Shown: positions 4,969 through 57,975 of the stretch, in pieces
How positions within the stretch are numbered: the stretch's first letter is position 1
How the letters are laid out: every line of letters begins with the position of its first letter
From: Mycobacteriales bacterium
Lineage (GTDB): Bacteria; Actinomycetota; Actinomycetes; JAFAQI01
Assembly: GCA_035504215.1 (NCBI GenBank)
Contig: DATJSI010000112.1
Span: forward strand, 7,461 to 71,460
Direction: 5' to 3'
DNA: 64,000 bases
Made by a program: the position numbers and the translations under genes
Notes under the pieces: generated by a model
What the model saw: the letters and a program-made list of their open reading frames with translations, nothing else
Database searches by the model: none
What the model was told of the DNA's origin: nothing

Positions 4969-5957
4969 GCGCGTCGCTCCAACACCCCGAGGATCCGCTC
5001 GACCGCGTCGGCTACGGCCACCTCGGTCGTGTCGATGACGAGATCCGCGTCCTCAGGCGGCTCGTAGGGATCGTTGACCCCCGTGAAGGCCGTGATCTCG
5101 CCGGCTCGAGCCTTGGCGTACAGGCCCTTCACGTCCCGACGTTCGCACTCCTCGATCGGCGTCGAGATCCACACCAGGACGAACGAGCCGGGGCCGCCGG
5201 CGGCATCGACCGCCCGTCGTACCCATTGCCGGGTTTCGTCGTACGGCGCAATGGGCGCGCACACGGCGAGGCCGCCGTGCTTGGTCACCTCGGCAGCGAC
5301 CCAGCCGATCCGCCGGATGTTGATGTCGCGGTCCTCGCGCGAGAAGCCCAGCCCCCGGGACAGGTGCGTCCGCACGACATCTCCGTCGAGCAGCGTGACG
5401 GTGCGCGCCGTCCCGATGCGTTCGACCAGTGCACGGGCAATCGTCGACTTTCCGGAGCCGGAGAAACCGGTCAGCAGGATGGTGCGGCCATCGCCCGTGG
5501 GCTGGGGCACCGTCTCGATCTCGATCTGCGGGCCGCTGGAGTACGCCGCGGCCAGCTCGGCGGCGCGAGCCGCCGCTTCGGCCGGCTCGACGGGGATGGG
5601 GACGACCTCGCCCGCGTGCTCGGACCACGCGGTCGACCAGGCGATGTGCCGGGCATCGTCGGGGCGGACGCCGGCGGCGGGCAGGAGCAGCAGGCACTCC
5701 GCGGGGACGGAGCCGGCCGGGAGCCGGCCATCGACGGCGACAACCACCGGTTGCTCGCTCGCCACGTCCATCGGGTGCCGCCAGGCGGAGGCGGCCAGCG
5801 CGGCGATTCCGTTGTCCTCGCGCCGGGCGACCGGGGTGCCCTCCTCGTCCAGGTAGACGTCCCCGACGTCGCCGGGCAGCATCGCGCGCGGCGCCAGCCC
5901 GATCAGGATCTGGTCGAGCCGCGCCCGCTCGGCGACGCCGAGGGTGATCTGAGCCAT
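4965..5957 (-). CDS. cysC: Adenylyl-sulfate kinase with a ~150-aa N-terminal extension of unknown function
   Basis: The C-terminal 180 aa carry the P-loop 'GFSGSGKST' plus the 'LLDGD…LGF' and 'NIRR' APS-kinase motifs. The N-terminal 150 aa are unrecognised. There is a 4-nt overlap with cysQ in convergent orientation. Confidence 0.85.
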   Translation of the reverse strand: MAQITLGVAERARLDQILIGLAPRAMLPGDVGDVYLDEEGTPVARREDNGIAALAASAWRHPMDVASEQPVVVAVDGRLPAGSVPAECLLLLPAAGVRPDDARHIAWSTAWSEHAGEVVPIPVEPAEAAARAAELAAAYSSGPQIEIETVPQPTGDGRTILLTGFSGSGKSTIARALVERIGTARTVTLLDGDVVRTHLSRGLGFSREDRDINIRRIGWVAAEVTKHGGLAVCAPIAPYDETRQWVRRAVDAAGGPGSFVLVWISTPIEECERRDVKGLYAKARAGEITAFTGVNDPYEPPEDADLVIDTTEVAVADAVERILGVLERRA

Positions 5958-10483: not shown

Positions 10484-12004
10484 TTGCGAACCTGGGGAGA
10501 ACGAGTGACGCTGGCGGCCGAGGGTCGGTCAGCGGCGCCCGACCTGGCTCCGGCGGTGCGCAACCTGCTCGAGCGCGAGCGGCGTGAGCGCCAGCGGCCG
10601 GTCGACGTCTGGGGGCGCCGCTACCTCGGCATGGTTGTGGCACTCGACTTTCTGATCATCCTCATCAGTAGCTTGCTGGCGCTCTATGTCCGCTTCGGCA
10701 ACACCGACCAGCACGTGAGCGGACTGTCGTACTCGACCCTGAGCGTCGTACTGGTCCCGGTGTGGGTGTGCTCGCTCGTGGTCGCCCGGGCCTACGAGGT
10801 GCCCTTCCTCGGCACCGGTGCGGAGGAGTTCAAGCGGGTCAGCACCGCTTCCCTGCGGCTGATGGCCGTGCTCGCCGTGATCGCCTACACCTTCAAGATC
10901 GACCTCGCGCGCGGATACGTCGCGGTCGCACTGCCGGTCGGCACGGTCATGCTGCTGCTCGGTCGCTACGCCCAGCGCCGCTGGCTGCATCACCGGCGGC
11001 GGCAAGGGGCGTACATGCGCCGGGTGCTCGTGATCGGCGGTGTCGACGGCATCCGAGACATCGCCGACCAGTTCAAGCGCGAGCCGTACGTCGGGTACTC
11101 ACTGGTCGGTGCGTGCACGCCGACGTCGAGCGAGGCGCACGTGCTGCCGGACCTCCCGGTGCTCGGCTCGCTCACCCAGGTGCTCAGTGCCGTGGCCGAG
11201 GTCGGAGCGGACACGGTCGCGGTCGCGTCGGGGCCGGGCATGTCACCTGCCGTGCTGCGCCGGCTGTCCTGGGACCTCGAGGGCACGGGGGTGTCCCTCG
11301 TCGTGGCGCCCGAGCTGCTCGACGTGGCCGGGCCGCGGATCAGCGTGCGACCGGTCGAGGGCCTGCACCTGCTGCACGTCGAGGAGCCGGAGCTGTCGGG
11401 CGTGCGCCAGCTGCTCAAGGCGAGCGTCGAGTGGCTCTGCGCGACGGCCGCCTTCCTGCTCGTGCTCCCGCTGCTCGTCGTACTGGCGCTCGTGGTTCGG
11501 CTGGACAGCCAGGGTTGGCCGCTGTTCCGCCAAACCCGGATCGGCAAGAACGGGCGCGAGTTCACCGTCTACAAGATCCGCACGATGCGGGCCGACGCCG
11601 AGTCGCTGCTCGACTCGCTGCGCGAGCAGAACGAGTCCTCCGACGGCTTGCTGTTCAAGATCCGCCAGGACCCGCGCGTGACGCGGGTCGGTTCATGGTT
11701 GCGCAAGTGGTCGCTGGACGAGCTGCCGCAGCTGTGGAACGTCGTCCGGGGCGACATGGCGCTCGTGGGTCCGCGCCCGCCGCTGCCGCGTGAGGTGGCC
11801 AACTACGGCACCGAGGTCGCGCGCCGGCTGCTCGTGAAGCCCGGTATCACCGGGCTCTGGCAGGTGTCCGGCCGGGCGAACCTGAGCTGGGAGGACAGCG
11901 TCCGCCTCGACCTTTACTACGTCGAGAACTGGTCGTTCGCGCTCGACGCCATGATCGTCTGGAAGACGATCTTCGCGGTGCTTCGCCGCGACGGCGCCTA
12001 CTAG
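10484..12004 (+). CDS. Polyprenyl glycosylphosphotransferase (WbaP/CpsE-type exopolysaccharide initiating sugar transferase)
   Basis: N-terminal TM segments plus the C-terminal bacterial sugar-transferase domain ('[10 protein letters not shown]', '[21 protein letters not shown]'). The true start is possibly the GTG at 10505, preceded by GGGGAGA. Confidence 0.9.
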
Positions 12005-12032
12005 CCTCGCCGCAGCGCGCGTCGTCGTCGCG

Positions 12033-12932
12033 CTACTCCCCACCCGCAAGTTCGGGATGCCGGTCGACCGCGGCGTGCAGCGCCTCCTGCCACGGCCGCG
12101 GCGGGGGCAGCCCAGCGGCTTCCCATTTCGCGGTCGAGAGCACGGAGTACGCCGGCCGCGGCGCGGGCCGCGGGTAGGCCGCGGTGGTGGTGGGGTGGAC
12201 CATCGCCGGATCGAGCCCGATCTCCCCGACGATTGCGGCGGCGAAGCCACACCATGTCGTCTCGCCCTGACCGGTGTAGTGCCAGATGCCGGGACGAACC
12301 GATGCCGCGCCGAGCGCGGACAGCGCGACCGCCAGGTCGTGCGACCAGGTCGGTGAGCCGTGCTGGTCGTCGACGACGTCGAGCGCGTCGCGGTCGCGAG
12401 CCAGCCGCGCGATCGACTTCACGAAGTTGGGCCCGGTCGCGCCGTACACCCATGCGGTCCGCACGATGTGGACGTCGCCGCCCGCACTAAGGACGGCCCG
12501 CTCGCCGGCTGCCTTCGAGCGGCCGTAGGCCGACTGCGGAGCGAGCGGGGCGTCGACGTCGTACGGGGTGGACGCGTCGCCGGCGAAGACGTAGTCCGTG
12601 GACAGGTGCAGTAGCCGGGCCCCGTGCGCGGCGCACCAGCGGGCCAGGTGGCCGGGCGCGTCGCCGTTGACGGCGGTCGCGGTTGCCTCGTCGGTCTCTG
12701 CCGCGTCGACCGTGGTGTAGGCGGCGCAGTTGACGACCACCGCGGGCCGGGCGTCGTCGAGCGCCCTGGTGACTGCATCGGGATCGGTGATGTCGAGGTC
12801 GTCGCGACCGAGCCCGACGACTTCGTCGTCGCCGGCTTGAAGGACCGCCATGAGATCCGTGCCGACCTGACCGGTTGCGCCGGTGACCAGCCAGCGGGTC
12901 ACGATGCGACGTGCTTCAGCGGGCGCCACCAC
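12033..12932 (-). CDS. rfbD: dTDP-4-dehydrorhamnose reductase
   Basis: RmlD family ('LVTGATGQVG', 'STDYVF', 'YGRSK'). The likely true start is the GTG at 12902, overlapping the rmlB stop (GTGA). Confidence 0.9.
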   Translation of the reverse strand: MVAPAEARRIVTRWLVTGATGQVGTDLMAVLQAGDDEVVGLGRDDLDITDPDAVTRALDDARPAVVVNCAAYTTVDAAETDEATATAVNGDAPGHLARWCAAHGARLLHLSTDYVFAGDASTPYDVDAPLAPQSAYGRSKAAGERAVLSAGGDVHIVRTAWVYGATGPNFVKSIARLARDRDALDVVDDQHGSPTWSHDLAVALSALGAASVRPGIWHYTGQGETTWCGFAAAIVGEIGLDPAMVHPTTTAAYPRPAPRPAYSVLSTAKWEAAGLPPPRPWQEALHAAVDRHPELAGGE

Positions 12933-13879
12933 TGCTCGTTGTCGCGGTACCAGCGGATCGTGTCCTGCAGGCCCGCTTCGAACTCGACGGCCGGCTGGTA
13001 GCCGAGCTCGGCGCGGAGCTTGGCGTCATCGAGGGAGTACCTCCGGTCATGGCCCTTGCGGTCCTCGACCGGCTCGACGAACGACCAGTCACGACCGCAC
13101 GCGTCGACCAGCCGCTCGGTGAGCTCGCGGTTGGTCAGCTCGGTGCCGCCGGCGATGTTGTAGGTCTCCCCGGTGCGACCGCCCTCGAGGACGAGCGCGA
13201 TGGCGCGGCAGTGGTCATCCACGTGCAGCCAGTCACGGATGTTCAGCCCGTCGCCGTACAACGGCACCGGGAGGCCGTCGATCAGGTTGGTGACGAACAG
13301 CGGGATGACCTTCTCGGGGAACTGGTAGGGCCCGTAGTTGTTCGTGCACCTCGTGATGACGACGTCGAGGCCGTGCGTTACGACATACGAACGCGCGATC
13401 AGGTCGCCACCCGCCTTGGCCGCGGAGTACGGGGAGTTGGGGTCCAGCCGGTCGACCTCCTGGAAGGCGCCGTCGGCGATCGACCCGTAGACCTCGTCGG
13501 TCGACACCTGGAGCACGCGCGGAATGCCGGTGCGCAGGCAGGCGTCGAGCAGGGTCTGGACGCCAACCACGTTGGTCGTCACGAAGTCGGCCGCCCCCGC
13601 GATGGAGCGGTCCACGTGGGACTCGGCCGCGAAGTTGAGAACGGCGTCGTGCCCGGGCAGCACGGTGTCGAGCAGATCCGAGTCGAGGATGTCGCCCTTG
13701 ACGAACGTGTAGCGCGGATCGTCCGCCACCGCGGCGAGGTTCTCCAGGTTGCCTGCGTAGGTCAGCTTGTCGTAGACGGTCACCTCGGCGCCGGCGTACG
13801 ACGGATAACCGTCGGCGAGGAGTGTCCGGACGAAGTGCGAGCCGATGAAACCAGCGCCGCCGGTGACCAGAAGTCGCAC
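12899..13879 (-). CDS. rfbB: dTDP-glucose 4,6-dehydratase
   Basis: 'MRLLVTGGAGFIGS' and 'YSAAKAG' motifs. Full-length RmlB similarity. Confidence 0.95.
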   Translation of the reverse strand: MRLLVTGGAGFIGSHFVRTLLADGYPSYAGAEVTVYDKLTYAGNLENLAAVADDPRYTFVKGDILDSDLLDTVLPGHDAVLNFAAESHVDRSIAGAADFVTTNVVGVQTLLDACLRTGIPRVLQVSTDEVYGSIADGAFQEVDRLDPNSPYSAAKAGGDLIARSYVVTHGLDVVITRCTNNYGPYQFPEKVIPLFVTNLIDGLPVPLYGDGLNIRDWLHVDDHCRAIALVLEGGRTGETYNIAGGTELTNRELTERLVDACGRDWSFVEPVEDRKGHDRRYSLDDAKLRAELGYQPAVEFEAGLQDTIRWYRDNEQWWRPLKHVAS

Positions 13880-13925
13880 GTCGACGAGGCTACGTGACCC
13901 TCGGTTTGGGTAGCGTCATGTTCCG

Positions 13926-14807
13926 ATGAAGGGGATTGTGCTCGCCGGCGGCACGGGATCTCGGCTCTGGCCGATCACGCGCGCGCTGTCCAAGCAGCTG
14001 CTGCCCGTCTACGACAAGCCGATGATCTTCTACCCGCTCACGACGCTGATGATGGCGGGGATCCGGGAAGTCCTGGTCATCACGACCGCCGAGGATGCCG
14101 AGGCCTTTCGCCGGCTGCTGGGCGACGGCTCGGGGTTCGGCATCGACGTCGACTATGCGGTGCAGCCCGAACCGAGAGGGCTGGCCCAGGCGTTCACGAT
14201 CGGCGCGGACTTCATCGGCTCCGACTCGGTCGCCCTGGTGCTCGGCGACAACATCTTCTACGGCTCGGGGCTCGGCACCCAGCTGGCCAGGCTCGCCGAC
14301 GTCGACGGCGGCCACATCTTCGCCTACCAGGTCGCCAACCCGTCCGACTACGGCGTCGTGGAGTTCGATGCGAGCGGTCAGGTCGTCTCGATCGAGGAGA
14401 AGCCGGACCGCCCACGCAGCGCTTACGCCGTACCCGGCCTGTACTTCTACTCCTCCGACGTGGTCGGGATCGCGCGCGGCCTCACGCCGAGCGCGCGCGG
14501 TGAGCTCGAGATCACGGCCGTGAACGACGCGTACCTGCGTGAGGGCCGGCTGACGGTCAGCGTTCTCCCGCGCGGCACGGCCTGGCTCGACACCGGAACC
14601 TTCGGCAGCCTGGTCCAGGCTTCGGAGTTCGTGCGCGTGGTCGAGGAGCGGCAGGGTCTCAAGATCGGCTGCCCGGAAGAGATCGCCTGGCGCAGCGGCT
14701 GGCTCTCCGACGACGAGCTCGCTGCGGCCGGTCACGCTCTGGCGAAGAGCGGGTACGGCGAGTACTTGCTGTCGCTGCTTGCCAACCGGGCCCCGCGGCG
14801 GGCATGA
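13926..14807 (+). CDS. rfbA: Glucose-1-phosphate thymidylyltransferase
   Basis: '[16 protein letters not shown]' and '[13 protein letters not shown]' motifs. Confidence 0.95.
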
Positions 14808-15403
14808 AGATCGAGCCGCTCGCGGTCCCGGGCGCCTGGGTCTGCTCGCCGCAGGTGTACGGCGACGACCGCGGCTCGTTCGCGGAGTGGTACCGCGACG
14901 ACCTGTTGCGCGCCGCCACCGGACGGCGGTTCGAGGTCGTGCAGGCCAACCACTCGGTGTCGCGTCGTGGGGTGGTGCGGGGAGTGCACTTCGCCGACGT
15001 TCCTCCGGGACAGGCGAAGTACGTGTACTGCCCCGTCGGCGCCTTCGTCGACATCGTGGTCGACCTTCGGGTCGGGTCTCCGACCTTCGGCGCGGTCGAC
15101 TCGGTACGCCTCGACGACGCGGACCAGCGGGCGGTCTTCATCGCCGAGGGCATCGGCCACGTGCTGTGTGCCTTGGCGGACGGCAGCTCGGCGAACTATC
15201 TGGTGTCGACGCCGTACAACCCGGCGGTGGAGCGGACGATCTCACCGCTCGATCCCGCACTGGGCTTGCCACTGCCCGAGGACCTCGGTGACCTGGTGCT
15301 TTCGGAGAAGGACGCCGCCGCGCCGACCCTCGAACAGGCCATCAATTCAGGCATTCTGCCGACCTACGAAAACTGTTTAGCCCGTTACGGCGAACTCGCC
15401 TGA
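14804..15403 (+). CDS. rfbC: dTDP-4-dehydrorhamnose 3,5-epimerase
   Basis: RmlC cupin ('[10 protein letters not shown]', 'RGVHF'). 4-nt overlap with rfbA. Confidence 0.95.
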
Positions 15404-15683: not shown

Positions 15684-16937
15684 TCAGCAGGTGAGCGGGC
15701 CGCCTTGGCGTACCTCGTCGTTGACGGGCAGCAGGTTGGCTTTGACGTAGGCGATGTCGGCAGCCTCGTGGATCGGCGATGGGTAGTACGTCATCAGGTG
15801 GCTGATCTGCCAGCGCGAGGTGAGCGCCGGAATGGTCCTACGCAGTCGCTCCTGCGTGAGATACATGAAGCTGTTCTCGTTGTAGAACGCGACCAGGCTC
15901 GGGTCCTGGAATGCGCCCCGGCCATCCGTGCTCGGCGTATCGGTCAGCAGGAGTCCGGCGGGATCGAGCGCCCGGTGCGCCTCGTTGAGGAACGACGCGC
16001 GGTCGCGCACCCGCGACAATATGTCGACTGCATTCACGACGCCGAGCGCGCCGTCGGGCACGCCGAGCCGCACCTGATCCGGATCGATCATGAGACGCGT
16101 GAAGCGCTCGTCGATGTCGGCGTCGTTGACATTGGCAGGCGCGTCGAGAGCGACGCAGCCGAGCCCGTTGCGGCTCGCCCAGGCAAGCGTCATCGACTCG
16201 ATGTGCTCGCGGTAGAGAGCGATCGTGCCGTCCTGGATCGCGGCATTGAGGGCCGGATCCGCCTGAGTGTTGCGGCGATGAACGCGCTGGAAGTAGAGGC
16301 AGCGCGGGATATGGACGAACTCGCCGAGCTGGAACAGCCGGATCATGAGGTCCTGGTCGTCGAGAACCACCAGGCTCGCGTCGTACCCACCCGCGTCGTC
16401 GTACGCGGTTCGACGGAACGCGCGGACGTGGTTGGGCGCGTACCAGATGTAGCCGACGTTGTGCGGCGTTGCCGCGAGCGACGTGCAACGCAGGTATGTC
16501 GTGCCGTCGATGACCTCGTCGTTGTAGACCCAGCCGTTCGTGGCGTCCCAACGTTCGAGGTTGGGCGAGCCGTCATCGTTGATCTGGGTGAAGTCCGAAT
16601 ATGCGAGGGATGCTGTCGGGTTGCTCGCGAACGCCCGGGCGATCTCGTCGAGAGCGGTGTTGTGCAGGCGGTCGTCGTGGTCGAGCTCGACCAGGATCGC
16701 GCCGGTCGCGAGCTCGCACGCGGCTCGCTTCGCGGAACCGACGCCGCGGATCCGCGAGCTCGCGCGGTGGGTCCGGACCCTGGGATCGGTGGACGGAGGT
16801 CGCCAGTTGGTTGCCTTGCCGTTGAGCAGGACGATCCACTCCCAGTCGGTGAAGGTCTGCGCGAGCAGGCTGTCGAAGGCGTCGTCGAGAAAGCGCGGAT
16901 CGTGGGTCGGCGTGAACACGGAGACGTGCGGCATCAC
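15684..16937 (-). CDS. Family-2 glycosyltransferase fused to a C-terminal class-I SAM-methyltransferase-like domain
   Basis: N-terminal GT2 signature ('VSVFTPTHD…LLAQTF.DWEWIV'). The C-terminal ~170 aa carry MTase post-I/II motifs ('VDILSRVRDRASFLNEAHRALDPAGLLLTDTP'). Confidence 0.75.
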   Translation of the reverse strand: MMPHVSVFTPTHDPRFLDDAFDSLLAQTFTDWEWIVLLNGKATNWRPPSTDPRVRTHRASSRIRGVGSAKRAACELATGAILVELDHDDRLHNTALDEIARAFASNPTASLAYSDFTQINDDGSPNLERWDATNGWVYNDEVIDGTTYLRCTSLAATPHNVGYIWYAPNHVRAFRRTAYDDAGGYDASLVVLDDQDLMIRLFQLGEFVHIPRCLYFQRVHRRNTQADPALNAAIQDGTIALYREHIESMTLAWASRNGLGCVALDAPANVNDADIDERFTRLMIDPDQVRLGVPDGALGVVNAVDILSRVRDRASFLNEAHRALDPAGLLLTDTPSTDGRGAFQDPSLVAFYNENSFMYLTQERLRRTIPALTSRWQISHLMTYYPSPIHEAADIAYVKANLLPVNDEVRQGGPLTC

Positions 16938-17823: not shown

Positions 17824-18492
17824 GTGTTCTTCGTGTCCATGCCTGCGCGGTCTCCTCGTCGCGCGCTTGCGTGCGCTGCCGGCGCAGTCGCGATCGCCGC
17901 CCCTGCGCTCACGACCGGCTGGGCCGGTACGGCGAACGCGGCGATCCCATCGGCGAACGGGAAGATCTACGCCTGCTACAACCCCAAGCACGGCAACCTG
18001 CGCGTGTACGCGAAGGGGCACCGGGCGGCGCACTGCCCGGCCGGGTACAAGTCGGTGAGCTGGAAGGTCAAGGGAGCCAAAGGCGCGACCGGCAAGCGGG
18101 GTGCACCCGGGAAACGCGGCGCGACCGGGAAGCGCGGCGCGAAGGGTGCCCGCGGCGCGCAAGGTGCGCAGGGCCCACAGGGCGCGCAGGGCGCGCAGGG
18201 CCCGCAAGGCGCGCAGGGCCCGCAAGGTCCGCAAGGAGCCCAAGGTCCCCAGGGTGCTTCGGGGAGTGGTATTGCGACGATCGTTGAGAACGGCGCAAGC
18301 GCGGGGACCTCGACGGCCAACTGTCCGACGGGAGACGTTGCCACCGGCGGCGGATTTAACAATGGTGCCGTGACAGCGTCGTTCCCCGTCAACGGAACTA
18401 CGTCATCGCCACCGACGGGATGGGAGGCAATCGCCGTCTCCGGCAGTGTGGTTGCGTTTGTGATCTGCGCACCGGGGGTCCCATCCGGCTAG
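17824..18492 (+). CDS. Secreted collagen-like (Gly-X-Y) triple-helix repeat protein
   Basis: Signal peptide. About 23 uninterrupted GXY triplets ([14 protein letters not shown]…GAQGPQGAQ…). A ~70-aa Gly/Thr-rich C-terminal domain. Confidence 0.7.
18070..18280 (+). repeat. Coding GXY triplet repeat (9-bp periodicity) inside the collagen-like gene
   Basis: Reiterated 'ggcgcgcagggcccgcaaggt…' units seen directly in the sequence. Confidence 0.8.
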
Positions 18493-18540: not shown

Positions 18541-19452
18541 GTGGGTAGCCCTCTGCTCGATCGTCCTGGCGCGGTGGCGGGCCGCGGGGTCGACGCATCG
18601 GTCGCCGCGCACTACGGCGACTCGTTCGGCGAGCAACGCCGGCTGATCGAGGCCGGCGCAGTCGTGGACCGGTCGCATCGCGGGGTGCTGCGCATCGACG
18701 GCGCGGACCGCTTGTCCTGGCTGCATTCGCTCACGACGCAGCACCTCGAGTCGTTGCCCGCCGGCGAGCCACGCCAGGCGCTGATCCTGTCGCCGCACGG
18801 TCATGTCGAGCATCACCTCACTCTCACCGACGACGGCGCCTCGACATGGATCACGGTCGAGCCGGAGACCGTGGCGGCGCTCACGGCGTACCTCGAGTCG
18901 ATGCGGTTCATGCTTCGGGTCGAGGTCCACGACGTCACCGTGGAGCATGCTGTGGTGTCGGTCCGCGCCGATGAGCAGTGGAAGGACCTGCTCGTGCCGC
19001 GGCCGGAGCTCGCTGCCCGGGTGGACGCGCTCGGCCTGCCGCTGGTCGGGCTCGGCGCCTACGAGGCGCTGCGGGTCGAGGCACGGGTGCCCAGGCTCGG
19101 GTTCGAGACCGACCATCGCACGATCCCGCACGAGCTCGGGTGGATCGGCGACGCCGTACATCTCGACAAAGGCTGCTACCGCGGTCAGGAGACGGTGGCG
19201 AGGGTCCACAACCTCGGCCGCCCGCCGCGGCGGCTGGTGTTCGGTCATCTCGACGGGACGAAGGACGAGCTTCCGCCACCGCATACGCCGATCGAGCTCG
19301 ACGGGCGGGTGGTCGGCTTTCTCGGTACGGCGGTCCAGCACGCCGAGCTCGGCCCGGTCGCGTTGGCCGTGATCAAGCGGCAGACGGCGGACGACGCGAT
19401 GCTCTCGGTCGCGGGAATGGCGATGAAGGCCGAACGAGTGGTCGACGCTTAG
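18541..19452 (+). CDS. ygfZ: Folate-binding YgfZ/GcvT-like protein (Fe-S cluster repair / tRNA modification)
   Basis: GcvT-like N-terminal domain and the diagnostic 'KGCYRGQE' motif. Confidence 0.85.
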   Translation: MGSPLLDRPGAVAGRGVDASVAAHYGDSFGEQRRLIEAGAVVDRSHRGVLRIDGADRLSWLHSLTTQHLESLPAGEPRQALILSPHGHVEHHLTLTDDGASTWITVEPETVAALTAYLESMRFMLRVEVHDVTVEHAVVSVRADEQWKDLLVPRPELAARVDALGLPLVGLGAYEALRVEARVPRLGFETDHRTIPHELGWIGDAVHLDKGCYRGQETVARVHNLGRPPRRLVFGHLDGTKDELPPPHTPIELDGRVVGFLGTAVQHAELGPVALAVIKRQTADDAMLSVAGMAMKAERVVDA

Positions 19453-19479
19453 GCGACGGTCGCAGATGGCGGCCGGTTC

Positions 19480-22305
19480 TTAGAGGCCGAACAGCCCGAT
19501 CTTCTTCTTCTGCTTCTTCTCGGGTGCAGGCGCCGGGCGTGGCTTGTGCGCCGGCGCCGTTGCCGCCGGAACCGGCGCGGGACCGTCATCGAGGCCGAGC
19601 GAGGACAGCTCACGCAGCAACGCCGCGGTGTCGGCCTGCGCTGCTTCGTTCCACTCCTCGACGTCGTCGTCGGTGTCGTCCTCGCCCGGTGCGGGCTCAT
19701 CCTCCGCAGTGGCAGCGGCACTGTCCGTGTCGGTCTCGGGGTCGGCGTCAGCCGGTTCCTCTACTGCCTCGGGCTCAGCCTCTGCGTCGGGGGTCAGCGC
19801 AGAGGACAGCTCGACCAGCAGCGCGGTCGCCGCCGCAGCCTCGTCCGCTTGGCGCGCGGCTTCTTCGGCGGCCTGCTTCTCGGCCTTGCGGCGCGCGTTG
19901 CGCTCGGCGCGCGTCTCCGATGCCGGCGCCTCCGGCTCGGCGTCTTCGCTCGATTCGAGGTCCTCGCCGCTCGCGGCAGCAAGCTCGGCGAGGTGTTCGG
20001 CCGTGAGCTCTTCGGCGGCTTCGGCTTCGCTGCGCACGGCCTCTGCCTGCTCGGCGGCGAGCCGATCGGCTTCGGCCCGAGCCGCAGCCTCCTCGAATGC
20101 CACGCGCTCGGCGCGTACCTGCTCGGACAGCCGCTCGGCCTCGGCCTCCGCCTCCGCCAGCCGCTCGGCTTCCTCGGCGGCGAGCCGGGCCGCTTCGGCG
20201 GCCTCGGCCGCCTCCTGGGCGATCCGCTCGGCCTCGGCCAGCTCGGCGGCCAGCCGGTCAGCTTCGGCCTGCTCGGCGGCGAGCCGGGCGGCTTCCTCGC
20301 GTTCCCAGTATTCGGCCCAGGCCAGTTCTTCGAGGGCGGCGCGTTCGGCGAGTTCGGCGGCGACCCGCTCGGCTTCGGCCTGTTCGGCGGCGAGCCGGGC
20401 GGCTTCCTCGCGTTCCCAGTATTCGGCCCAGGCTTGCTCTTCGAGCGCAGCGCGCTCGGCGAGCTCGGCGGCGACCCGCTCGGCCTCGGCTTGCTCGGCG
20501 GCGAGGCGGGCGGCTTCCTCGCGCTCCCAGTATTCGGCCCAGGCTTGCTCTTCGAGGGCGGCGCGTTCGGCGAGTTCGGCGGCGATCCGCTCGGCCTCGG
20601 CTTGTTCGGCCGCGAGTCGCTCGGCCTCGGCTTGTTCGGCCGCGATCCGCTCGGCCTCAGCGGCTTCCTCGGCGGCGATCCGCTCGGCTTCGGCTTGTTC
20701 GGCCGCGATCCGCTCGGCTTCGGCTTGTTCGGCCGCGATCCGCTCGGCTTCGGCTTGTTCGGCGGCGAGTCGCTCGGCTTCGGCTTGTTCGGCGGCGAGT
20801 CGCTCGGCTTCGGCGGCTTCCTCGGCGGCGAGCCGCTCGGCTTCGGCTTGTTCGGCGGCGAGCCGCTCGGCTTCGGCCGCTTCCTCGGCGGCGATCCGCT
20901 CGGCTTCCGCCTGCTCGGCGGCCTGGCGCTCGATCTCTGCCGCCTCGTCGGCGGCCGCCTGGGCTGCCTCGGCTTCGGCCTGGTCGGCAGCGAAGTGCTC
21001 GGCGATCAACTCGGCCGGCGGCAGCCCGTCCGCCACCCGGTCGTCGACGTCCAGGTCCGCGTCGGACTCGATGACCTCGGCCGCGGCGGCCTGCTCGGCA
21101 CGCAGGGTCTCCACCATTGCCTGCGCACTGGCGAGCTCTGCGGCGGCCGCCGAACGCAGCCGCTTGCGACGCTGCCACTCGGGGTCGCTGGTCGAGCTCT
21201 TGGAGCGCTTCAGCGCAACCGCACGGTTGGCGGCGCTGTCGAGCTCCGAGGCGTCGGGGGTCTCGCCGAGAACGTCGGAAAGCGCATTCGACACCCGCGC
21301 GATCGACGCCGCGAACGACTCGCTCGTGCTGCGGTGCAGCGGCACGATCATCGGGTTGTCGAACGTCGAGGGTCCCGCGGTCTCCGGCGGCGCCAGCCCG
21401 ATCCTGGGCAGGTCGCCGTTCCCGTCGCCATTGCCGCTGTGGTCGCCGGCGACTTCGTTCACCAGCCGCGCCAGCCGGCTGAGCACGTCTTCATCCGACC
21501 CGCCGGACGCGTCGTTGTCGGACTCCTCGTCGAGCTCGCCGGACAGGGCCGAGCTCAGCGTGGTTGCGCCGTACAACGCGTCGCCGGACAGGTCCAGGTC
21601 CTCGTCGATGTCGACCAGGCCGGCCTGCACGAGCTGGACGATGACCAGACCGGCTTCGAACAGCGTGTAGCCGCAGTCGCGGGCGAGATCGGCCACCGAC
21701 CGCTCACCGTCGATCTTGCACAGCATCGACCACGCGTCGTTGTCCAGTGTCGTCTCGGAGCTGCCGGCGCCCCGGGTCGACAGCTTCGGGACCGCTGCCG
21801 GCCCGTGGACGACGGCGGAGATGTTCTCCCACTCGTAGCCACGGTTCCGCAGCGTCTCGAGCAGCTCGACCACGACCATCGGCGGGCCGACGTCTTCGCG
21901 GGCACGGATGTTCTTGCGGAACTTCCAGGTTCCTTCGGTCCAGCGCAGGAGGTCCCAGAGCGCCTCGGTGACCTGCTCGGCGACGAAAGCCTCGACCACC
22001 GGCTGGTCGACGTACCCGAGGTGGACCAGCAGCTCGCCGAGCCGCCAGCCCTGCAGCTCGCTGCGCTGGGCCTCCAGTGCCTCGGCCAGCGCCTCGGGCG
22101 CGAGCGCGCCGGAGGAGACCAGCTTGGCGCCGAGCTGCGGCCGGGTGCCCGGGACGAAGACGGAGTAGATCAGCCCGCTCTTGAAGTAGATCTGCGCTTC
22201 ATCGTTGTCCGGATTCGTCACGTGCAGGCAACCGGTGACCGAGTCGGCGGCCAGATCGCGCAGCAGGGGGGCCAGCGGCGTAGACGTCAGGTCGCCTTTG
22301 AGCAT
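19480..22305 (-). CDS. DUF4388-domain protein with a long Ala/Glu-rich tandem-repeat (coiled-coil) region and a Pro-rich, Lys-tailed C-terminus
   Basis: N-terminal 'GDLTSTPLAPLLRDLAADSVTGCLHV' matches the DUF4388 pattern. About 315 aa consist of 10-aa 'AEQAEAERIA' and ~35-aa 'ELAERAALEEQAWAEYWEREEAARLAAEQAEAERVA' tandem repeats. The protein ends '…KKQKKKIGLFGL'. Confidence 0.75.
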   Translation of the reverse strand: MLKGDLTSTPLAPLLRDLAADSVTGCLHVTNPDNDEAQIYFKSGLIYSVFVPGTRPQLGAKLVSSGALAPEALAEALEAQRSELQGWRLGELLVHLGYVDQPVVEAFVAEQVTEALWDLLRWTEGTWKFRKNIRAREDVGPPMVVVELLETLRNRGYEWENISAVVHGPAAVPKLSTRGAGSSETTLDNDAWSMLCKIDGERSVADLARDCGYTLFEAGLVIVQLVQAGLVDIDEDLDLSGDALYGATTLSSALSGELDEESDNDASGGSDEDVLSRLARLVNEVAGDHSGNGDGNGDLPRIGLAPPETAGPSTFDNPMIVPLHRSTSESFAASIARVSNALSDVLGETPDASELDSAANRAVALKRSKSSTSDPEWQRRKRLRSAAAAELASAQAMVETLRAEQAAAAEVIESDADLDVDDRVADGLPPAELIAEHFAADQAEAEAAQAAADEAAEIERQAAEQAEAERIAAEEAAEAERLAAEQAEAERLAAEEAAEAERLAAEQAEAERLAAEQAEAERIAAEQAEAERIAAEQAEAERIAAEEAAEAERIAAEQAEAERLAAEQAEAERIAAELAERAALEEQAWAEYWEREEAARLAAEQAEAERVAAELAERAALEEQAWAEYWEREEAARLAAEQAEAERVAAELAERAALEELAWAEYWEREEAARLAAEQAEADRLAAELAEAERIAQEAAEAAEAARLAAEEAERLAEAEAEAERLSEQVRAERVAFEEAAARAEADRLAAEQAEAVRSEAEAAEELTAEHLAELAAASGEDLESSEDAEPEAPASETRAERNARRKAEKQAAEEAARQADEAAAATALLVELSSALTPDAEAEPEAVEEPADADPETDTDSAAATAEDEPAPGEDDTDDDVEEWNEAAQADTAALLRELSSLGLDDGPAPVPAATAPAHKPRPAPAPEKKQKKKIGLFGL
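20090..20960. repeat. Near-perfect tandem DNA repeats (30-bp units and ~105-bp units) inside the DUF4388 gene
   Basis: Example: 'gatccgctcggcttcggcttgttcggccgc' is iterated many times between 20640 and 20900. Three ~105-bp units lie between 20280 and 20600. Confidence 0.9.
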
Positions 22306-22430
22306 GGACGACCTCCTCTACGGCCGGGCAGTGACGCTTCGGGCTACCTTCACTCCTTCGGCAGTTCAGGCGGGTGTGTTGAGCCAATTGGCGCAATCGA
22401 CCCCGCACGACTGCGCTCGGTCGTGGCACC

Positions 22431-23054
22431 ATGGCGCGGTGGCGACGCCACGGGCCAGAATTGGTGACTAAGGTCCCTCCACATTCAGACGAAGGCGCAG
22501 GCATGACACATCCGGGTGGAAACCGCCGCATCGACCGGCTCCTGGCCCCGGGATTTCTGGACGGGCTGTCCAGCGCCTCGCTCGAAGACCTGCGCACCAT
22601 GCGGGCGGACGCCGAGCAGGAGGAGACCGACCTGTCCTACCTGCGCCGGCTGCTGCAGGGCCGGCTCGACATCCTGCGGGCGGAGGCCGCGCGGCGCGCG
22701 GGCGGTGAGGAATCGGCGTCGTGGGTGGACCTGCTGCCGGGCATCCTCGCCGACGACGGGCCGCACGAGGCGCACGGCCTCGGGCACTACACCGCGGCCG
22801 AGCCCTCGCGTGCCGACCAGCACCGGCGCTACGTCGAGGCGCTCGCCGCCGACGTCTCGATGTCCGACCCCGGCGGGCTCACCGACGAGTCTCTGTCGCG
22901 CGCGATCGAGCTGTTCGAGCACGAGGAGGCCACGGTCTCGGCCAACCGCCGGGCCGTCCAGCACGTCATGGACCAGTGCACCGCGGAGATCGCTCGCCGC
23001 TACCGCGAAGGCGACGCCGATGTCGCGGACCTGCTGCCCAGCGAGTCGAGCTGA
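22431..23054 (+). CDS. rsiG: RsiG-like c-di-GMP-binding anti-sigma factor homolog (likely true start at the ATG at 22503)
   Basis: Two copies of the E(X)3S(X)2R(X)3Q(X)3D motif ('EETDLSYLRRLLQGRLD' and 'EATVSANRRAVQHVMD') in predicted helices. ~185 aa, consistent with the Streptomyces RsiG architecture. Confidence 0.65.
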   Translation: MARWRRHGPELVTKVPPHSDEGAGMTHPGGNRRIDRLLAPGFLDGLSSASLEDLRTMRADAEQEETDLSYLRRLLQGRLDILRAEAARRAGGEESASWVDLLPGILADDGPHEAHGLGHYTAAEPSRADQHRRYVEALAADVSMSDPGGLTDESLSRAIELFEHEEATVSANRRAVQHVMDQCTAEIARRYREGDADVADLLPSESS

Positions 23055-24079: not shown

Positions 24080-24598
24080 GTGGCAAGAATCGACGTCCGC
24101 AACCTGGGTGACTACATCCGGGAGCAGCGTTCGTCGGCGCAGATCTCGTTGCGCCAGCTGGCCACCCTCGCCGGTGTGTCGAACCCGTATCTCAGCCAGA
24201 TCGAGCGTGGCCTTCGCAAGCCGAGTGCCGAGATCCTCCAGCAGATCGCCAAGGCGCTGCGGATCTCCGCGGAAGCGCTGTACGTGCAGGCCGGGATTCT
24301 CGAGGAGCGGTACGACGACAGCGATGTACCGGCGGCGATCCTGTCCGACCGTCATCTCGCCGAGCGGCAGAAGCAGGTCCTGCTCGAGCTGTACGAGGCG
24401 TACCGCCGGGAAAGCGACGCAGCCAACACCCAGTCGGCCCGGACCCCGCCGCCTCGCGCCGGCGACGGCGAACTGCCGTCGTCCGGCGCCGGCACCCGGA
24501 CCCGGACTGCGCGGCGAGTCGGCCACTCAACCAAGACGTCGGATGCTGCGACGTCGACGAAGAAGGCGCGTACCCCAAAACCCGACGCCCGTCCCTAG
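24080..24598 (+). CDS. XRE-family HTH transcriptional regulator (Rv0474-like) with a basic, low-complexity C-terminal tail
   Basis: HTH_3 motif ('LRQLATLAGVSNPYLSQIERG'). Conserved position upstream of an hbhA-like gene. Confidence 0.8.
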   Translation: MARIDVRNLGDYIREQRSSAQISLRQLATLAGVSNPYLSQIERGLRKPSAEILQQIAKALRISAEALYVQAGILEERYDDSDVPAAILSDRHLAERQKQVLLELYEAYRRESDAANTQSARTPPPRAGDGELPSSGAGTRTRTARRVGHSTKTSDAATSTKKARTPKPDARP

Positions 24599-24697
24599 AG
24601 TCCCGACGCGTGCGGCCGCCGCTGCTCCCGCCCGCGTGACAACAACTTCATCCGCGACTGCGTGCCGACCGGCACGCTACCGATCCAGGAGGATCAG

Positions 24698-25600
24698 ATG
24701 CCTACCAAGACCACAGTCGATCCGAAGCCTCTCTACGCGATTGCCGGGGTCGGTGACCTCGCGGTCGAGCGGCTGCGCAGCCGACTCACGACGAACCCGC
24801 TGCAAATCAAGGACATCTCGGCACTCAGCACCGCCCGCCGGGCCGAGCTGCGCAAGCAGGCAAAGAGCCAGGCCGCGATGCTGCGCAAGCAGGCCGAGAC
24901 CCTTCCGGCCGACGTGCGCAAGCAGGCCGAGGAGCTGACCCACACCCTGCGCAAGCACGTCGCCACCCTGCCGGCCGACCTTCGCAAGCAGGCCGGCTCG
25001 CTGCCGACCGACTGGCGCAAGCAGCTCGACGAGCTGCCGACCGAGTGGCGCCGCCAGGTTGACGCCCTTCCGAGCGACCTGCGCAAGCAGGCCGAGGAGT
25101 TCGGCGCAGCGGTGCGCAAGCACACCGAAGACCTGACCGCCAAGGCGATCGCGGCGTACTCCGAGTTCGCCGCACGTGGCGAGAAGGTCGTCGCCGAGCT
25201 TCGTGGTGACGCTGCCGCCGCCGAGCCCGCGAGCAAGCACTCCGCGAAGTCCGCACCGAAGCCCGTGACCCGCAAGCCGGCCGAGAAGCGCGCCGCCGCG
25301 AAGAAGTCGACACCCAGCAAGACGACCGTGAAGAAGTCGACTGCGAAGAAGTCCGCCGCGAAGACCTCGTCCGCGAAGACCTCGTCCGCGAAGCACACGA
25401 CGAAGGCGAGTGCGGCGAAGGCGACAGCTACGGCGGCGGAGCACACCGGTCCGGTGCCGACGACCACCTCGGCCGTCACTCCTGAGCCTGCGACGCCGAC
25501 GGTCGTCGCCGACCTCCCGACCGTGACCGCGGCGGCGCCGGTGACCGAGCCGCACACCGCTCACCCCTCGAGCACGAACGGCCAGCACCCGACGAGCTGA
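24698..25600 (+). CDS. HbhA-like (heparin-binding hemagglutinin family) protein with a coiled-coil core and a Lys/Ala/Ser/Thr-rich C-terminal repeat tail
   Basis: N-terminal 'KPLYAIAGVGDLAVERLRSRL' resembles the HbhA N-terminus. There are 'LP.D.RKQA' heptad-like repeats and a KKS/AKKS-rich tail. A perfect AGGAGG sits 5 nt upstream of the ATG at 24698. Confidence 0.7.
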   Translation: MPTKTTVDPKPLYAIAGVGDLAVERLRSRLTTNPLQIKDISALSTARRAELRKQAKSQAAMLRKQAETLPADVRKQAEELTHTLRKHVATLPADLRKQAGSLPTDWRKQLDELPTEWRRQVDALPSDLRKQAEEFGAAVRKHTEDLTAKAIAAYSEFAARGEKVVAELRGDAAAAEPASKHSAKSAPKPVTRKPAEKRAAAKKSTPSKTTVKKSTAKKSAAKTSSAKTSSAKHTTKASAAKATATAAEHTGPVPTTTSAVTPEPATPTVVADLPTVTAAAPVTEPHTAHPSSTNGQHPTS

Positions 25601-27178: not shown

Positions 27179-27949
27179 ATGTGCGTCGTCGATCTGCGCG
27201 GTGTCGATCTGTGGTTCGCGAACGGTCCGCAGGTGCTCCATGACGTCTCCCTGCGGGTCGGCGCCGGCGAGCACTGGGCGCTGTTGGGCCCGAACGGCGC
27301 CGGCAAGTCCAGCCTGTTGTCGGTTGCGGGAGCTCAGCGGTTCCCCTCGCGCGGAACCGTGGATCTGCTCGGCCGGAGGCTCGGGTCGGTTGACGTCCGC
27401 GAGCTTCGGGCGCAGCTGGGCGTCGTCGACCAGCGGCTGCGGCTGCCACGCGAGCTGTCGGTCGCCGACTACGTCGCGACCGGCTTCACGCAGACAGTGC
27501 AGTCGATACGGACGGCGACTCCTGATCAGGAGGCTCGGGTCGGGGAGCTGGTCGACCAGATGGACCTGGGTGGGGTTGCTCGGCGTTCGATCGCGCTGTG
27601 CTCACAGGGTGAGCAGGCCCGTGCGCGACTCGCTCGGGCACTTGTCGCCGAGCCGCGACTGCTGCTGCTGGACGAGCCGGCCGCCGGGCTCGATCTCCCG
27701 GGCCGGGCGGATCTGCTCGACGCGATGGCGCGCGCGACGGTCCGCAACGACCACGCGTCGATCACCGTCGCGCATCACCTCGAGGAGCTACCGAGCACCA
27801 CGACACACGTCGCCTTGCTGCGCGGGGGACGGCTGGTGGCGGTCGGCGACACCGGACTGCTGGGTGACGAAGAAGCGCTCAGCCGGTGCTTCGGCCGGCG
27901 GGTGCGCACGGTGGCGATCGACGGACGGTGGTTCGCCGTCGCCGGCTGA
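27179..27949 (+). CDS. ABC transporter ATP-binding protein (orphan, no adjacent permease). Alternative start at 27158
   Basis: Walker A 'GPNGAGKSS', ABC signature 'CSQGEQAR', Walker B 'LLLLDEP' and an H-loop. Confidence 0.85.
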   Translation: MCVVDLRGVDLWFANGPQVLHDVSLRVGAGEHWALLGPNGAGKSSLLSVAGAQRFPSRGTVDLLGRRLGSVDVRELRAQLGVVDQRLRLPRELSVADYVATGFTQTVQSIRTATPDQEARVGELVDQMDLGGVARRSIALCSQGEQARARLARALVAEPRLLLLDEPAAGLDLPGRADLLDAMARATVRNDHASITVAHHLEELPSTTTHVALLRGGRLVAVGDTGLLGDEEALSRCFGRRVRTVAIDGRWFAVAG

Positions 27950-55546: not shown

Positions 55547-56797
55547 ATGACCTCGTTGATCGACCGCCCGGCGGCGCAGTTCGGCTCCGCCGAAGCACTG
55601 GTATGCCGTGAGTGCGGTGCCACCTACCCGCTCGGGCCGACCCACGTGTGCGAGCTCTGCTTCGGTCCCCTCGAGATCGCCTACGACCCCGACGCACTGC
55701 GCGCCGTGACGCGCGCGAGTATCGAGGCCGGCCCGCAGTCAATGTGGCGCTATCGCGGTCTGCTACCGGTCGAACCACTCGTGGACCTTCGAGTCGGAAT
55801 GACCCGCCTGGTGCCGGCGCCCAACCTCGCGCGCGAGCTCGGCATGCGGTCGTTGTGGGTGAAGGACGACAGCGGCAACCCGACGCACTCGTTCAAGGAC
55901 CGAGTGGTCGCGGTGGCGGCGTCGGCCGCCCGGGCACTCGGCTACCGCGTGCTCGCCTGCGCCTCCACCGGCAACCTCGCGCACGCGGTCGCCGCCGCTG
56001 CGGCGAACGCCGGTCTGCGTTCGGTCGTCTTCATCCCCCATGACCTCGAGGCCGGCAAGTCGGTGACGACCGCGGTCTACGGCGGGACTCTGGTCGCGGT
56101 CGAAGGTTCGTACGACGAGGTCAACCGGCTGTCCGCCGAGATCGCCGGCGAGCTGCCGTGGGGCTTCGTCAACGTCAACGTCCGCCCGTTCTACGCCGAG
56201 GGCTCGAAGACGGTCGGCTTCGAGATCGCCGAACAGCTCGGTTGGCGGTTGCCCGAGCAGGTCGTCATCCCGATCGCGTCCGGCTCGTTGCTCACGAAGG
56301 TCGACAAGGCGTGGCGCGAGCTGAGCCGGCTCGGTCTCGTGGACCCGACGGCGTACCGGGTGTTCGGTGCGCAGTCGACCGGCTGCTCGCCGGTTGCGGC
56401 GGCGTTTCGTGCGGGACACGACGTGGTCGCGCCGGTGCGGCCGACCGGCATCGCGAAGTCACTCGCGATCGGCAACCCCGCCGATGGTCCCTATGCGCTG
56501 GACGTCGTGCGACGTACCGGTGGGGTGATCGAGGACGTCGGCGACACCGAAATCGTCGACGGCATCCGGCTGCTCGCGCGTACGACCGGAATATTCGGCG
56601 AGACGGCAGGTGGCGTCACGGTCGCCACTTTGCGCAAGCTGCTCGAGACCGGGCGGCTGGATCCCGAGGCCGAGACGGTCATCCTGAACACCGGTGACGG
56701 GCTGAAGACGCTGGACGCCGTTGTCGACGCCGTGGGCCCGACCGTCACGATCGCTCCGACATTGCAGGCGTTTCGAGAGGCGGGGTTGAGCGAATGA
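55547..56797 (+). CDS. Threonine-synthase-family PLP enzyme with an N-terminal Zn-ribbon (candidate MetM-type O-phosphohomoserine-dependent homocysteine synthase)
   Basis: 'CRECG…CELC' zinc ribbon. PLP-lysine motif 'HSFKDR'. ThrC fold. Preceded by a SAM riboswitch and followed by a sulfur-carrier gene. Confidence 0.8.
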   Translation: MTSLIDRPAAQFGSAEALVCRECGATYPLGPTHVCELCFGPLEIAYDPDALRAVTRASIEAGPQSMWRYRGLLPVEPLVDLRVGMTRLVPAPNLARELGMRSLWVKDDSGNPTHSFKDRVVAVAASAARALGYRVLACASTGNLAHAVAAAAANAGLRSVVFIPHDLEAGKSVTTAVYGGTLVAVEGSYDEVNRLSAEIAGELPWGFVNVNVRPFYAEGSKTVGFEIAEQLGWRLPEQVVIPIASGSLLTKVDKAWRELSRLGLVDPTAYRVFGAQSTGCSPVAAAFRAGHDVVAPVRPTGIAKSLAIGNPADGPYALDVVRRTGGVIEDVGDTEIVDGIRLLARTTGIFGETAGGVTVATLRKLLETGRLDPEAETVILNTGDGLKTLDAVVDAVGPTVTIAPTLQAFREAGLSE

Positions 56798-57661: not shown

Positions 57662-57975
57662 GAAGGCGCTCTCCGACGCCGACCGGGTTAGCTGTCGGGT
57701 TCGGACCGTGGCTAGCCCGGCCGCCGGAGCGGCTTCACCCCAAGAGCGCGTGCCCCGCGCTCGTGTGCTGTTGGGTCCCCGATCCTGTCCGTGGGTTCGG
57801 TGTACGCACTCCGCGGACAGGTTTGGCGAACGGAGGCGACGGTCACCCGGCTGGGTGGCCCCGCATACCTTAGGTCGGCGTCCGGCCCGCCGTCCTTGAA
57901 TCCGGGATTTTTTCCGGGCGTGTCCGGTTTACCCGCCGGTCGCCCGCGGGAGCCGGCCTCGACGCCGGCGGCCGT

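Follow-up and report, generated by a model that had tools for sequence, protein, structure and literature searches.

A DUF4388 protein encoded beside rsiG is a candidate c-di-GMP effector with a predicted WhiG-type promoter and an acidic repeat stalk

The minus strand of a 64,000-nucleotide stretch from a Mycobacteriales bacterium (GenBank assembly GCA_035504215.1, contig DATJSI010000112.1, positions 7,461 to 71,460; hereafter the window) encodes, at 19480..22305, a 941-residue protein with an N-terminal PATAN (DUF4388) domain and a long Ala/Glu-rich stalk. The gene lies divergent from the gene for the anti-sigma factor RsiG. We propose that the protein acts as a cyclic di-GMP (c-di-GMP) effector, is controlled by WhiG and is perhaps attached to the membrane, and we put the probability of this reading at about 0.5. 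It is carried by a predicted WhiG-type promoter directly upstream of the gene and by an insertion in the PATAN domain that resembles MshEN_N, a c-di-GMP-binding fold. The protein is strongly acidic, would be cytoplasmic under this proposal, and is built of five modules.

The open reading frame (ORF) list contains this frame at 941 residues, and the frame is real, as the sequence-only reading of this DNA had held. Its G+C content at codon positions 1 to 3 is 0.81/0.50/0.85, typical of coding sequence in the window (overall G+C ~70%), a GGAGG precedes the start, and the MLKGDL start is kept in most of 34 orthologous loci. Pfam PF14332 (DUF4388) matches residues 3–135 with 62.3 bits against a cut-off of 25, which also bears out the N-terminal domain claimed earlier. 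Long ORFs on the opposite strand, such as one of 973 residues at 19546..22467 (plus), were rejected as artefacts of GC-rich, low-complexity sequence because homologs, Pfam and codon-position G+C all favour the minus-strand frame.

19480..22305, minus strand: coding sequence of the 941-residue PATAN/DUF4388 protein (ORF list, codon-position G+C, Pfam DUF4388, 34 orthologous loci)
19480-19482, minus strand: stop codon of the DUF4388 gene
22312..22316, minus strand: Shine-Dalgarno sequence GGAGG, 6 nucleotides 5′ of the ATG, invariant in the ortholog alignment

The gene is preceded by a predicted promoter of the sigma-28/WhiG type, located in the intergenic region that separates it from rsiG.

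22355..22382, minus strand: predicted sigma-28/WhiG-type promoter TCAA-N16-GCCGAAGG (match to the published consensus, ortholog alignment)
22423..22434, plus strand: conserved non-coding element GTGGCACCATGG on the rsiG-sense strand (invariant CAT..TG.CAC columns in the ortholog alignment)
22503..23054, plus strand: RsiG anti-sigma factor gene, start corrected (Pfam RsiG, start analysis, motifs)

The core of the promoter, TCAA-N16-GCCGA, occupies 22358-22382 (minus), with its first base 77 nucleotides 5′ of the ATG. It lies within 200 bp of the start codon and agrees exactly with T(A/C)AA-N16-GCCGA, the query used in a search for WhiG regulons, which requires the CGA core and ignores the last three −10 bases because these vary among confirmed targets (2026 preprint, PMC12871210). 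In an alignment of ten ortholog upstream regions, the boxes TGGCTCAACA and TGCCGA[AT]GG are invariant, and the spacer varies in sequence but is fixed in length. The promoter is exact in 26 of the 34 orthologous loci, a TTAA −35 box is found in seven more, and the site lies 71–88 nucleotides upstream of the start among loci with a reliable start. The query has five matches in the window against 0.54 expected, and none of 100 shuffles reached five.

The divergent neighbour, described earlier as rsiG-like, is indeed RsiG by Pfam (PF22802, E 3.8e-35), and both of its E-x3-S-x2-R-x3-Q-x3-D c-di-GMP-binding motifs are intact, at residues 41 and 142 from the corrected start. We rejected ATG 22431 as the RsiG start, as in most orthologs it is out of frame with the conserved start or separated from it by a stop codon. 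The conserved start is ATG 22503 (MTHPGGNRRIDR), and the intergenic region therefore spans 197 bp (22306-22502), not ~125 bp as first thought. ATG 22431 falls within the conserved element at 22423-22434, of the form GTG[GA]CA..ATG, where it is not a conserved start; this element may be an extended −10 promoter for rsiG. A simple scan of 19300-22600 for sigma-70 promoters and terminators returned nothing.

The rsiG gene is adjacent, or nearly so, in all 34 loci. The whole block (HbhA-like / XRE / asparaginase II / RsiG / DUF4388 / YgfZ) is syntenic, however, so that adjacency to rsiG is by itself weak evidence. In a subset of loci (L005, at 4986-5900 on the minus strand, and about a dozen others with a gap of ~1 kb), rsiG and the DUF4388 gene are separated by an extra gene whose sequence resembles that of a BKACE/DUF849-type enzyme. 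The promoter in these loci stays directly upstream of the DUF4388 gene. Hence, the regulatory link is likely to be the promoter, and a shared intergenic region is not needed. The site and its conservation suggest that the gene is switched on through the RsiG/WhiG pathway.

It is possible, if doubtful, that the upstream boxes form the promoter of another alternative sigma factor, for example one of the extracytoplasmic function (ECF) type (..CTCAAC-N17-CGA..), and that the adjacency to rsiG is mere inherited synteny. The conserved −35 region extends to GGCT[CT]AAC, the AAC of which resembles ECF −35 elements, the −10 box is GCCGAAGG rather than GCCGATAA and so departs from it at the last three bases, the synteny of the whole block makes adjacency alone weak evidence, and two of the five query matches in the window are intragenic. 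Against this, the site matches the WhiG query exactly, including the CGA core and the N16 spacing, and the three deviating −10 bases are not part of the query; one ortholog (L031) carries the canonical TAAA −35 box; and the matches in the window well exceed expectation. Besides the deviating −10 box, three further points weigh against WhiG control. The published query cannot tell WhiG1 and WhiG2 apart and might also capture sites of other sigma factors, whiG was not seen within the window, and the regulatory logic is somewhat paradoxical, since high c-di-GMP would turn off, via RsiG, a gene whose product is itself a receptor. The RsiG/WhiG papers covered do not mention this neighbouring gene and list no member of its family among WhiG targets, the coverage stopping short of the target tables in the supplement of PMC12871210.

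The other four exact query matches in the window are at 27369-27393 (minus), 56175-56199 (plus), 57875-57899 (minus) and 61645-61669 (plus). Two of these lie within genes, for an ABC transporter ATPase and a pyridoxal phosphate-dependent enzyme. Another lies in the NlpC/P60–GroEL intergenic region, ~214 bp upstream of an NlpC/P60 hydrolase gene (57086-57661, minus), and another ~218 bp upstream of a glyoxalase-family gene (61887-62261, plus).

The second line of evidence comes from the N-terminal head.

21901..22305, minus strand: PATAN (DUF4388) β-sheet domain, residues 1–135, broken by a four-helix insertion (Pfam PF14332, AlphaFold2 model)
21973..22137, minus strand: MshEN_N-like insertion, residues 57–111, predicted to bind c-di-GMP (NF053729, PDB matches, family conservation, AlphaFold2)

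In the AlphaFold2 model of residues 1–260 (m00c595bddbcc; predicted local distance difference test score (pLDDT) 90.5, predicted template modelling score 0.83), strands at residues 2–5, 25–30, 36–42, 45–50 and 126–131 form the PATAN sheet. Helices at 58–65, 70–82, 89–95 and 101–120 make up the insertion, which runs straight back into the sheet at residue 126. G66 and G97 lie at turns, and a four-helix bundle turning at conserved glycines is what characterizes the MshEN_N fold. NCBIfam NF053729 ("cyclic di-GMP-binding domain, MshE-related", 53 positions) matches residues 57–111 with 38.5–40 bits against a cut-off of 38, and it also matches 52 of 52 aligned homologs. Sequence and profile searches of the PDB with the head returned MshEN-type domains only: GSPII-C of Thermus thermophilus PilF (E 4.5e-5), Vibrio cholerae MshE with c-di-GMP (5htl, E 6.5e-4) and PilB. 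With Foldseek, the head model found no significant global counterpart in the PDB (best E-value 0.2) and only local winged-helix-like hits. No REC domain was found by Pfam in the 941-residue protein, which is thus not a PatA-type response regulator.

The MshEN motif consists of two tandem 24-residue copies of RLGxx(L/V/I)(L/V/I)xxG(L/V/I)(L/V/I)xxxxLxxxLxxQ, and MshEN_N by itself suffices for c-di-GMP binding (PMC5013675). The insertion follows this two-motif pattern with some departures, in the order motif I QLGAKLVSSGALAPEALAEALEAQ, a 7-residue linker and motif II RLGELLVHLGYVDQPVVEAFVAEQ. Among 138 family representatives at 50% identity, the contact and turn residues are strongly conserved: in motif I, L2 (123/134), G3 (129/134), G10 (121/134), L17 (131/133) and Q24 (129/132), and in motif II, R1 (116/132), G3 (120/132), G10 (122/132) and Q24 (120/138). 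Position 11 is Ala in motif I and Tyr in motif II of the window protein.

Several features of the head count against nucleotide binding. Motif I begins with Gln in place of Arg, and this is the sole key position that varies among family members (Q 52, L 29, A 16, R 11 of 134). Positions 17 and 21 of motif II are Val, where MshE has the Leu residues of LxxxL, and the spacer between the motifs has 7 residues, as in 131 of 132 family members, instead of the 5 of MshEN. The NF053729 score barely clears its cut-off, and Pfam found no match to PF05157 (T2SSE_N, the full MshEN) or to an ATPase at E ≤ 0.01 in the 941-residue protein. The Gln, the two Val residues, the long spacer and the marginal score would also fit a purely structural scaffold without nucleotide sensing, in which the insertion is a degenerate relic and the protein an acidic spacer or hub. 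MshEN homologs that do not bind are known, namely XpsE/GspE of Xanthomonas (PMC5013675) and PilF GSPII-A (PMC11731258). We nonetheless regard this explanation as unlikely. The non-binders carry several disruptive changes at Gly, Leu and Gln positions (PMC5013675), whereas here the Gly, the Gln and the motif I Leu residues are kept in ~80–98% of the 138 representatives, and the motif II Leu is replaced conservatively by Val. Departures of the same kinds occur in proven binders and so appear tolerable: PilF GSPII-B binds c-di-GMP at 6 nM with both motif-initial arginines replaced, and GSPII-C binds with a dissociation constant of ~0.5 μM, an affinity like that of MshEN (PMC11731258). GSPII-C also lacks the Arg of its own motif II, and its alignment likewise has the 7-residue spacer.

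The protein therefore probably senses c-di-GMP through an MshEN_N-type insertion in its PATAN domain, as judged from motif, fold and conservation. The idea that the gene could be an output of c-di-GMP signalling if co-regulated with rsiG, put forward in the sequence-only reading, gains support in a narrower form, namely a predicted WhiG-type promoter of its own and an MshEN-type motif in its product. A PATAN domain with an embedded MshEN_N is not among the architectures in Supplementary Table 4 of Wang et al. 2016; GspE_N annotations on some DUF4388 proteins were already remarked upon in a 2021 preprint (bioRxiv 10.1101/2021.06.11.447907).

The most conspicuous part of the protein is the stalk.

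19993..21012, minus strand: Ala/Glu-rich predicted continuous α-helix, residues 432–771, ~50 nm long if straight (AlphaFold2)
20584..20922, minus strand: eleven short tandem units of 10 or 11 residues (30 or 33 bp), residues 462–574 (Tandem Repeats Finder, unit parsing)
20251..20583, minus strand: three 37-residue (111-bp) units, residues 575–685 (Tandem Repeats Finder)

AlphaFold2 predicts one helix here (model md3c8157fd814 of residues 431–941, model residues 2–341), with pLDDT mostly 82–93 and a dip near residues 570–590. The stalk has 102 acidic and 33 basic residues and a net charge of −77, and every one of the basic residues is paired with an acidic one at i±3 or 4. Its hydrophobic residues have a power of only 0.03 at period 3.5, against a mean shuffle maximum of 0.56, and with this lack of heptad periodicity the coiled coil that had been suggested is not supported, a canonical one being rejected. 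In comparison with ER/K single helices, the predicted helix is continuous and the pairing of basic residues complete, but the charge is far from balanced. A charge-stabilised, strongly acidic single-helix rod or spacer thus fits the model better than a canonical coiled coil. The suggestion of an acidic scaffold or spacer agrees with these data, as well as with the family-wide retention of composition but not of sequence or length.

The short units read AAEQAEAER[IL] (10 residues) or AAEEAAEAER[IL] (11 residues), and Tandem Repeats Finder reports them as a 30-bp array of 11.6 copies at 20566-20922 with 85% matches. Each 37-residue unit joins a Trp-containing 27-residue module, AAELAERAALEEQAWAEYWEREEAARL, to one 10-residue unit; the corresponding 111-bp array has 3.5 copies at 20234-20616 with 90% matches. 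The 10-residue unit described earlier is thus present, though it occurs together with 11-residue units, and the longer unit has 37 residues instead of ~35. Strict repeats make up ~26% of the protein and the Ala/Glu-rich helix ~36%, so the protein is not built mostly of repeats. Neither are the repeats near-perfect: besides the 85% matches of the 30-bp array, the 111-bp copies are mutually 89–92% identical in nucleotide sequence, and the gene's longest exact direct repeat measures 59 bp. Copies 1 and 2 of the 37-residue unit differ at nine nucleotides, nine of them synonymous and none non-synonymous, which indicates that the copies are old enough to have diverged and that selection acts at the protein level. 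Recent expansion is therefore only partly right.

Every complete ortholog carries an Ala/Glu-rich repeat tract, of ~200–440 residues, and the tract keeps its composition while its sequence and length change. All 23 orthologs tested have in-frame tandem repeats, each with its own period (range 18–294 bp). The closest relative, with an N-terminal domain 92% identical, has instead 8-residue and 10-residue units and a 55-residue higher-order repeat. Three members of one 90%-identity cluster (P0396, P0122 and P0395) are identical outside the Ala/Glu tract but have 688, 790 and at least 879 residues, differing by one and two extra copies of a 102-residue unit. The variation in repeat number anticipated by the sequence-only reading is thus borne out, and in these three alleles it reflects either a real polymorphism in copy number or a collapse during assembly. 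The stalk appears to be selected for composition and length, which is what a rod or spacer would show, in contrast to a sequence-specific domain.

That the repeat array or its copy number in the window is an assembly artefact seems improbable. Many database homologs are partial, as N-terminal pieces of 230–440 residues and C-terminal pieces of 46–105 residues, and the three alleles that differ by whole 102-residue units could reflect collapse. Yet no exact repeat in the window gene exceeds 59 bp, the 111-bp copies differ at 8–11% of positions, the frame stays open across the array and leads on to a C-terminal module that is conserved and in frame, and a repeat tract of this kind is present in every complete ortholog.

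Tandem 19-residue Trp repeats, xAWxxHxxWLxxERxxxE, occur in many copies in distant members of the family (L029, L030, P0143, P0145, P0169 and P0188), with up to 37 Trp in one of them. The AWAEYWERE module of the window protein seems to be related to this repeat, in a shorter form, and the Trp motifs are an old, optional element of the family. At the DNA level, AT skew is strongly negative (−0.56) at 20001-21000 of the window and the G+C content of the repeat tract rises to 0.75; the minus-strand run of GAA/GAG/GCC codons accounts for both.

The stalk is followed by a C-terminal module with three family hallmarks, which include the Pro-rich segment and basic tail noted earlier.

19594..19632, minus strand: short amphipathic helix motif DTAALLRELSSLG, residues 892–904, family-invariant (alignment, predicted helix)
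19519..19593, minus strand: Pro-rich linker of ~25 residues, residues 905–929, with a conserved Arg-Pro
19483..19518, minus strand: polybasic-hydrophobic tail KKQKKKIGLFGL, residues 930–941, proposed to bind the membrane

AlphaFold2 predicts a helix at residues 881–902 that covers most of the DTAALLRELSSLG motif. The motif is kept in 55 of 93 tail-bearing family sequences and forms invariant columns in the alignment. The polybasic-GLFG type of ending, [KR]n-G-[LIF]-F-G, is the C-terminal end in 67 of the 138 family representatives, with near variants in more, and it also closes the 21 intact full-length orthologs; as a family hallmark it takes the form [KR]4-5-G-[LIF]-F-G. A profile search with the C-terminal module found only 46–105-residue fragments of the same family and no other architecture. 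The tail may bind the membrane. Its low helical hydrophobic moment (0.22, similar to the 0.27 of the E. coli MinD C-terminal peptide), its length of only ~10 residues and its predicted disorder all speak against this part of the proposal.

Two further modules lie between the PATAN domain and the stalk.

21598..21753, minus strand: acidic winged-helix-like subdomain, residues 185–236 (AlphaFold2, local Foldseek matches)
20986..21585, minus strand: acidic Ser/Asp-rich linker, residues 241–440 (composition, net charge −21)

The subdomain is modelled with helices at residues 189–197, 204–211 and 215–227 and a strand at 231–234. Its winged-helix-like fold could point to a DNA-binding regulator, as once proposed for PatA-type proteins, but this is very improbable, because the subdomain is acidic, as is the N-terminal module as a whole (net charge −16 over residues 1–240), its local Foldseek matches to winged-helix folds (e.g. 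2yu3, probability 0.82) are not significant, and work on cyanobacterial PATAN proteins argues against DNA binding and shows association with the membrane and PilB (bioRxiv 10.1101/2021.06.11.447907). The 200-residue linker separates the N-terminal domain from the repeats, and its conservation profile has islands of moderate conservation at about residues 329–345 and 378–402.

When 1.84 billion cluster representatives were searched by profile, 452 proteins matched at E ≤ 1e-30 and 2,350 did so at E ≤ 1e-10, which defines a family of ~450 clusters at 50% identity at the stricter threshold. All listed homologs carry PF14332. Every match that carries a name is annotated as "DUF4388 domain-containing protein" or "hypothetical" and comes from a metagenome-assembled genome (MAG) of Frankiaceae, Mycobacteriales or Actinomycetes. 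The clusters looked up bore no names of cultured organisms, and the exact window protein did not turn up in public assemblies. The family is thus uncharacterised and belongs to the Actinomycetota, so far to MAGs of Frankiaceae/Mycobacteriales type, and nothing relevant on DUF4388/PATAN in actinobacteria was found in the literature. The frequent partial entries indicate that contigs and gene calls often break in the repeat tract.

We propose the following mechanism. Transcription would start from the sigma-28/WhiG-type promoter, with WhiG sequestered by c-di-GMP-loaded RsiG; the gene would accordingly be expressed when c-di-GMP falls. The product would then read c-di-GMP directly, giving a two-level c-di-GMP output. 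The head would bind one c-di-GMP, as MshE and PilF GSPII-B/C do, and binding would alter its contact with a partner. The acidic linker and the ~340-residue helix would hold the head away from the C-terminus, on repeats that expand, contract and turn over quickly. The amphipathic DTAALLRELSSLG helix is probably a partner-binding peptide, and the polybasic-GLFG tail probably fixes the protein at the cytoplasmic membrane, which is anionic, in the manner of the MinD C-terminal sequence. Tentatively, this would make the family a new class of Actinomycetota c-di-GMP effector, a PATAN/MshEN_N receptor held ~50 nm off the membrane on a fast-evolving acidic helix and made only upon release of WhiG.

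Parts of this scheme can be compared with known systems. With the MshEN/GSPII domains (V. cholerae MshE, T. thermophilus PilF GSPII-B/C), the window protein shares two tandem 24-residue motifs in a four-helix bundle, the Gly turns, Leu positions and terminal Gln, and the linker length of GSPII-C. It differs in having the MshEN_N half only, with no MshEN_C and no ATPase, in the location of the motif pair inside a PATAN β-sheet domain, and in the initial Gln of motif I and the Val-x3-Val in place of Leu-x3-Leu in motif II; its binding is predicted only. The cyanobacterial PATAN proteins PatA, PixG, PixE and LsiR, and SgnC of Myxococcus, have the same DUF4388/PATAN fold with an α-helical insertion, and known members work by contacting other proteins at the membrane or cell poles, as in PilB1 binding and heterocyst patterning. 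In contrast to these, the window protein is actinobacterial, has no REC domain, and carries a polybasic tail as well as a long, acidic helix made of repeats. The annotated genes of the window include none for type IV pili. With the RsiG–WhiG switch of Streptomyces, Rubrobacter and other Actinomycetota, the system shares rsiG as a near neighbour and the published WhiG consensus, but the papers covered do not describe the family as a target and WhiG control of the gene is predicted from sequence.

The membrane-targeting sequence of E. coli MinD ends in ...KKGFLKRLFGG. The window tail likewise places a short basic run before a hydrophobic L/F-F-G at the extreme C-terminus, but it is shorter, more polybasic and attached to no ATPase, and the likeness is a lead only. 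Long, charged, low-complexity spacers or scaffolds of strain-variable length are found in Vibrio HubP, Pseudomonas FimV, TolA domain II and ER/K helices. The stalk is similar to these in being a long, highly charged helical or repeat region of varying length, but there is no sequence homology, the flanking domains differ, and the tract is much more acidic than the balanced ER/K helices.

Other genes around the locus deserve brief mention. The stretch 24080-25600 (plus) holds a gene for an XRE-family regulator and, after it, one for an HbhA/apolipoprotein-like protein whose C-terminal tail is rich in Lys, Ala, Ser and Thr, and this pair is syntenic with rsiG in most loci examined. One MAG, SMAG_U6086, has the HbhA-like/XRE/RsiG/DUF4388/YgfZ block twice, on different contigs (loci L014 and L016, with N-terminal domains ~65% identical to that of the window), which suggests a mixed bin or a large duplication. 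Just past ygfZ, at 17824-18492 (plus), lies a second repeat-rich gene, encoding a collagen-like Gly-X-Y repeat protein (Pfam Collagen, E 3.3e-10) with a signal-peptide-like N-terminus; a relative occupies the same place in two of the loci (L001 and L003). Upstream of this region, a dTDP-rhamnose biosynthesis set (RmlD-, RmlB-, RmlA- and RmlC-like) with a polyprenyl-phosphate sugar transferase gene at 10484-15403 and a GT2 glycosyltransferase gene at 15684-16937 together form a cell-envelope polysaccharide context.

Few c-di-GMP receptors are known in the Actinomycetota, those named in the papers covered being BldD, RsiG and GlgX, and WhiG targets outside Streptomyces are mostly predictions. 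The family described here is a concrete candidate that can be tested in two roles, WhiG target and c-di-GMP binder, with predicted binding residues and promoter coordinates defined. It also illustrates a wider point, in that the in-frame tandem repeats of a spacer are replaced from one close relative to the next and the functional modules on either side remain unchanged. Metagenome assemblies and gene calls for the family systematically break at these repeats. If our proposal is right, a direct c-di-GMP sensor would lie within the WhiG regulon, where it could have an organising role at the envelope or the poles, for instance in division, sporulation, pili or motility, and the helical insertions of other PATAN domains may possibly be MshEN-derived nucleotide sensors as well. 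The family combines two known kinds of protein, MshEN-type receptors and PATAN proteins, and offers a testable lead for c-di-GMP signalling in the Actinomycetota.

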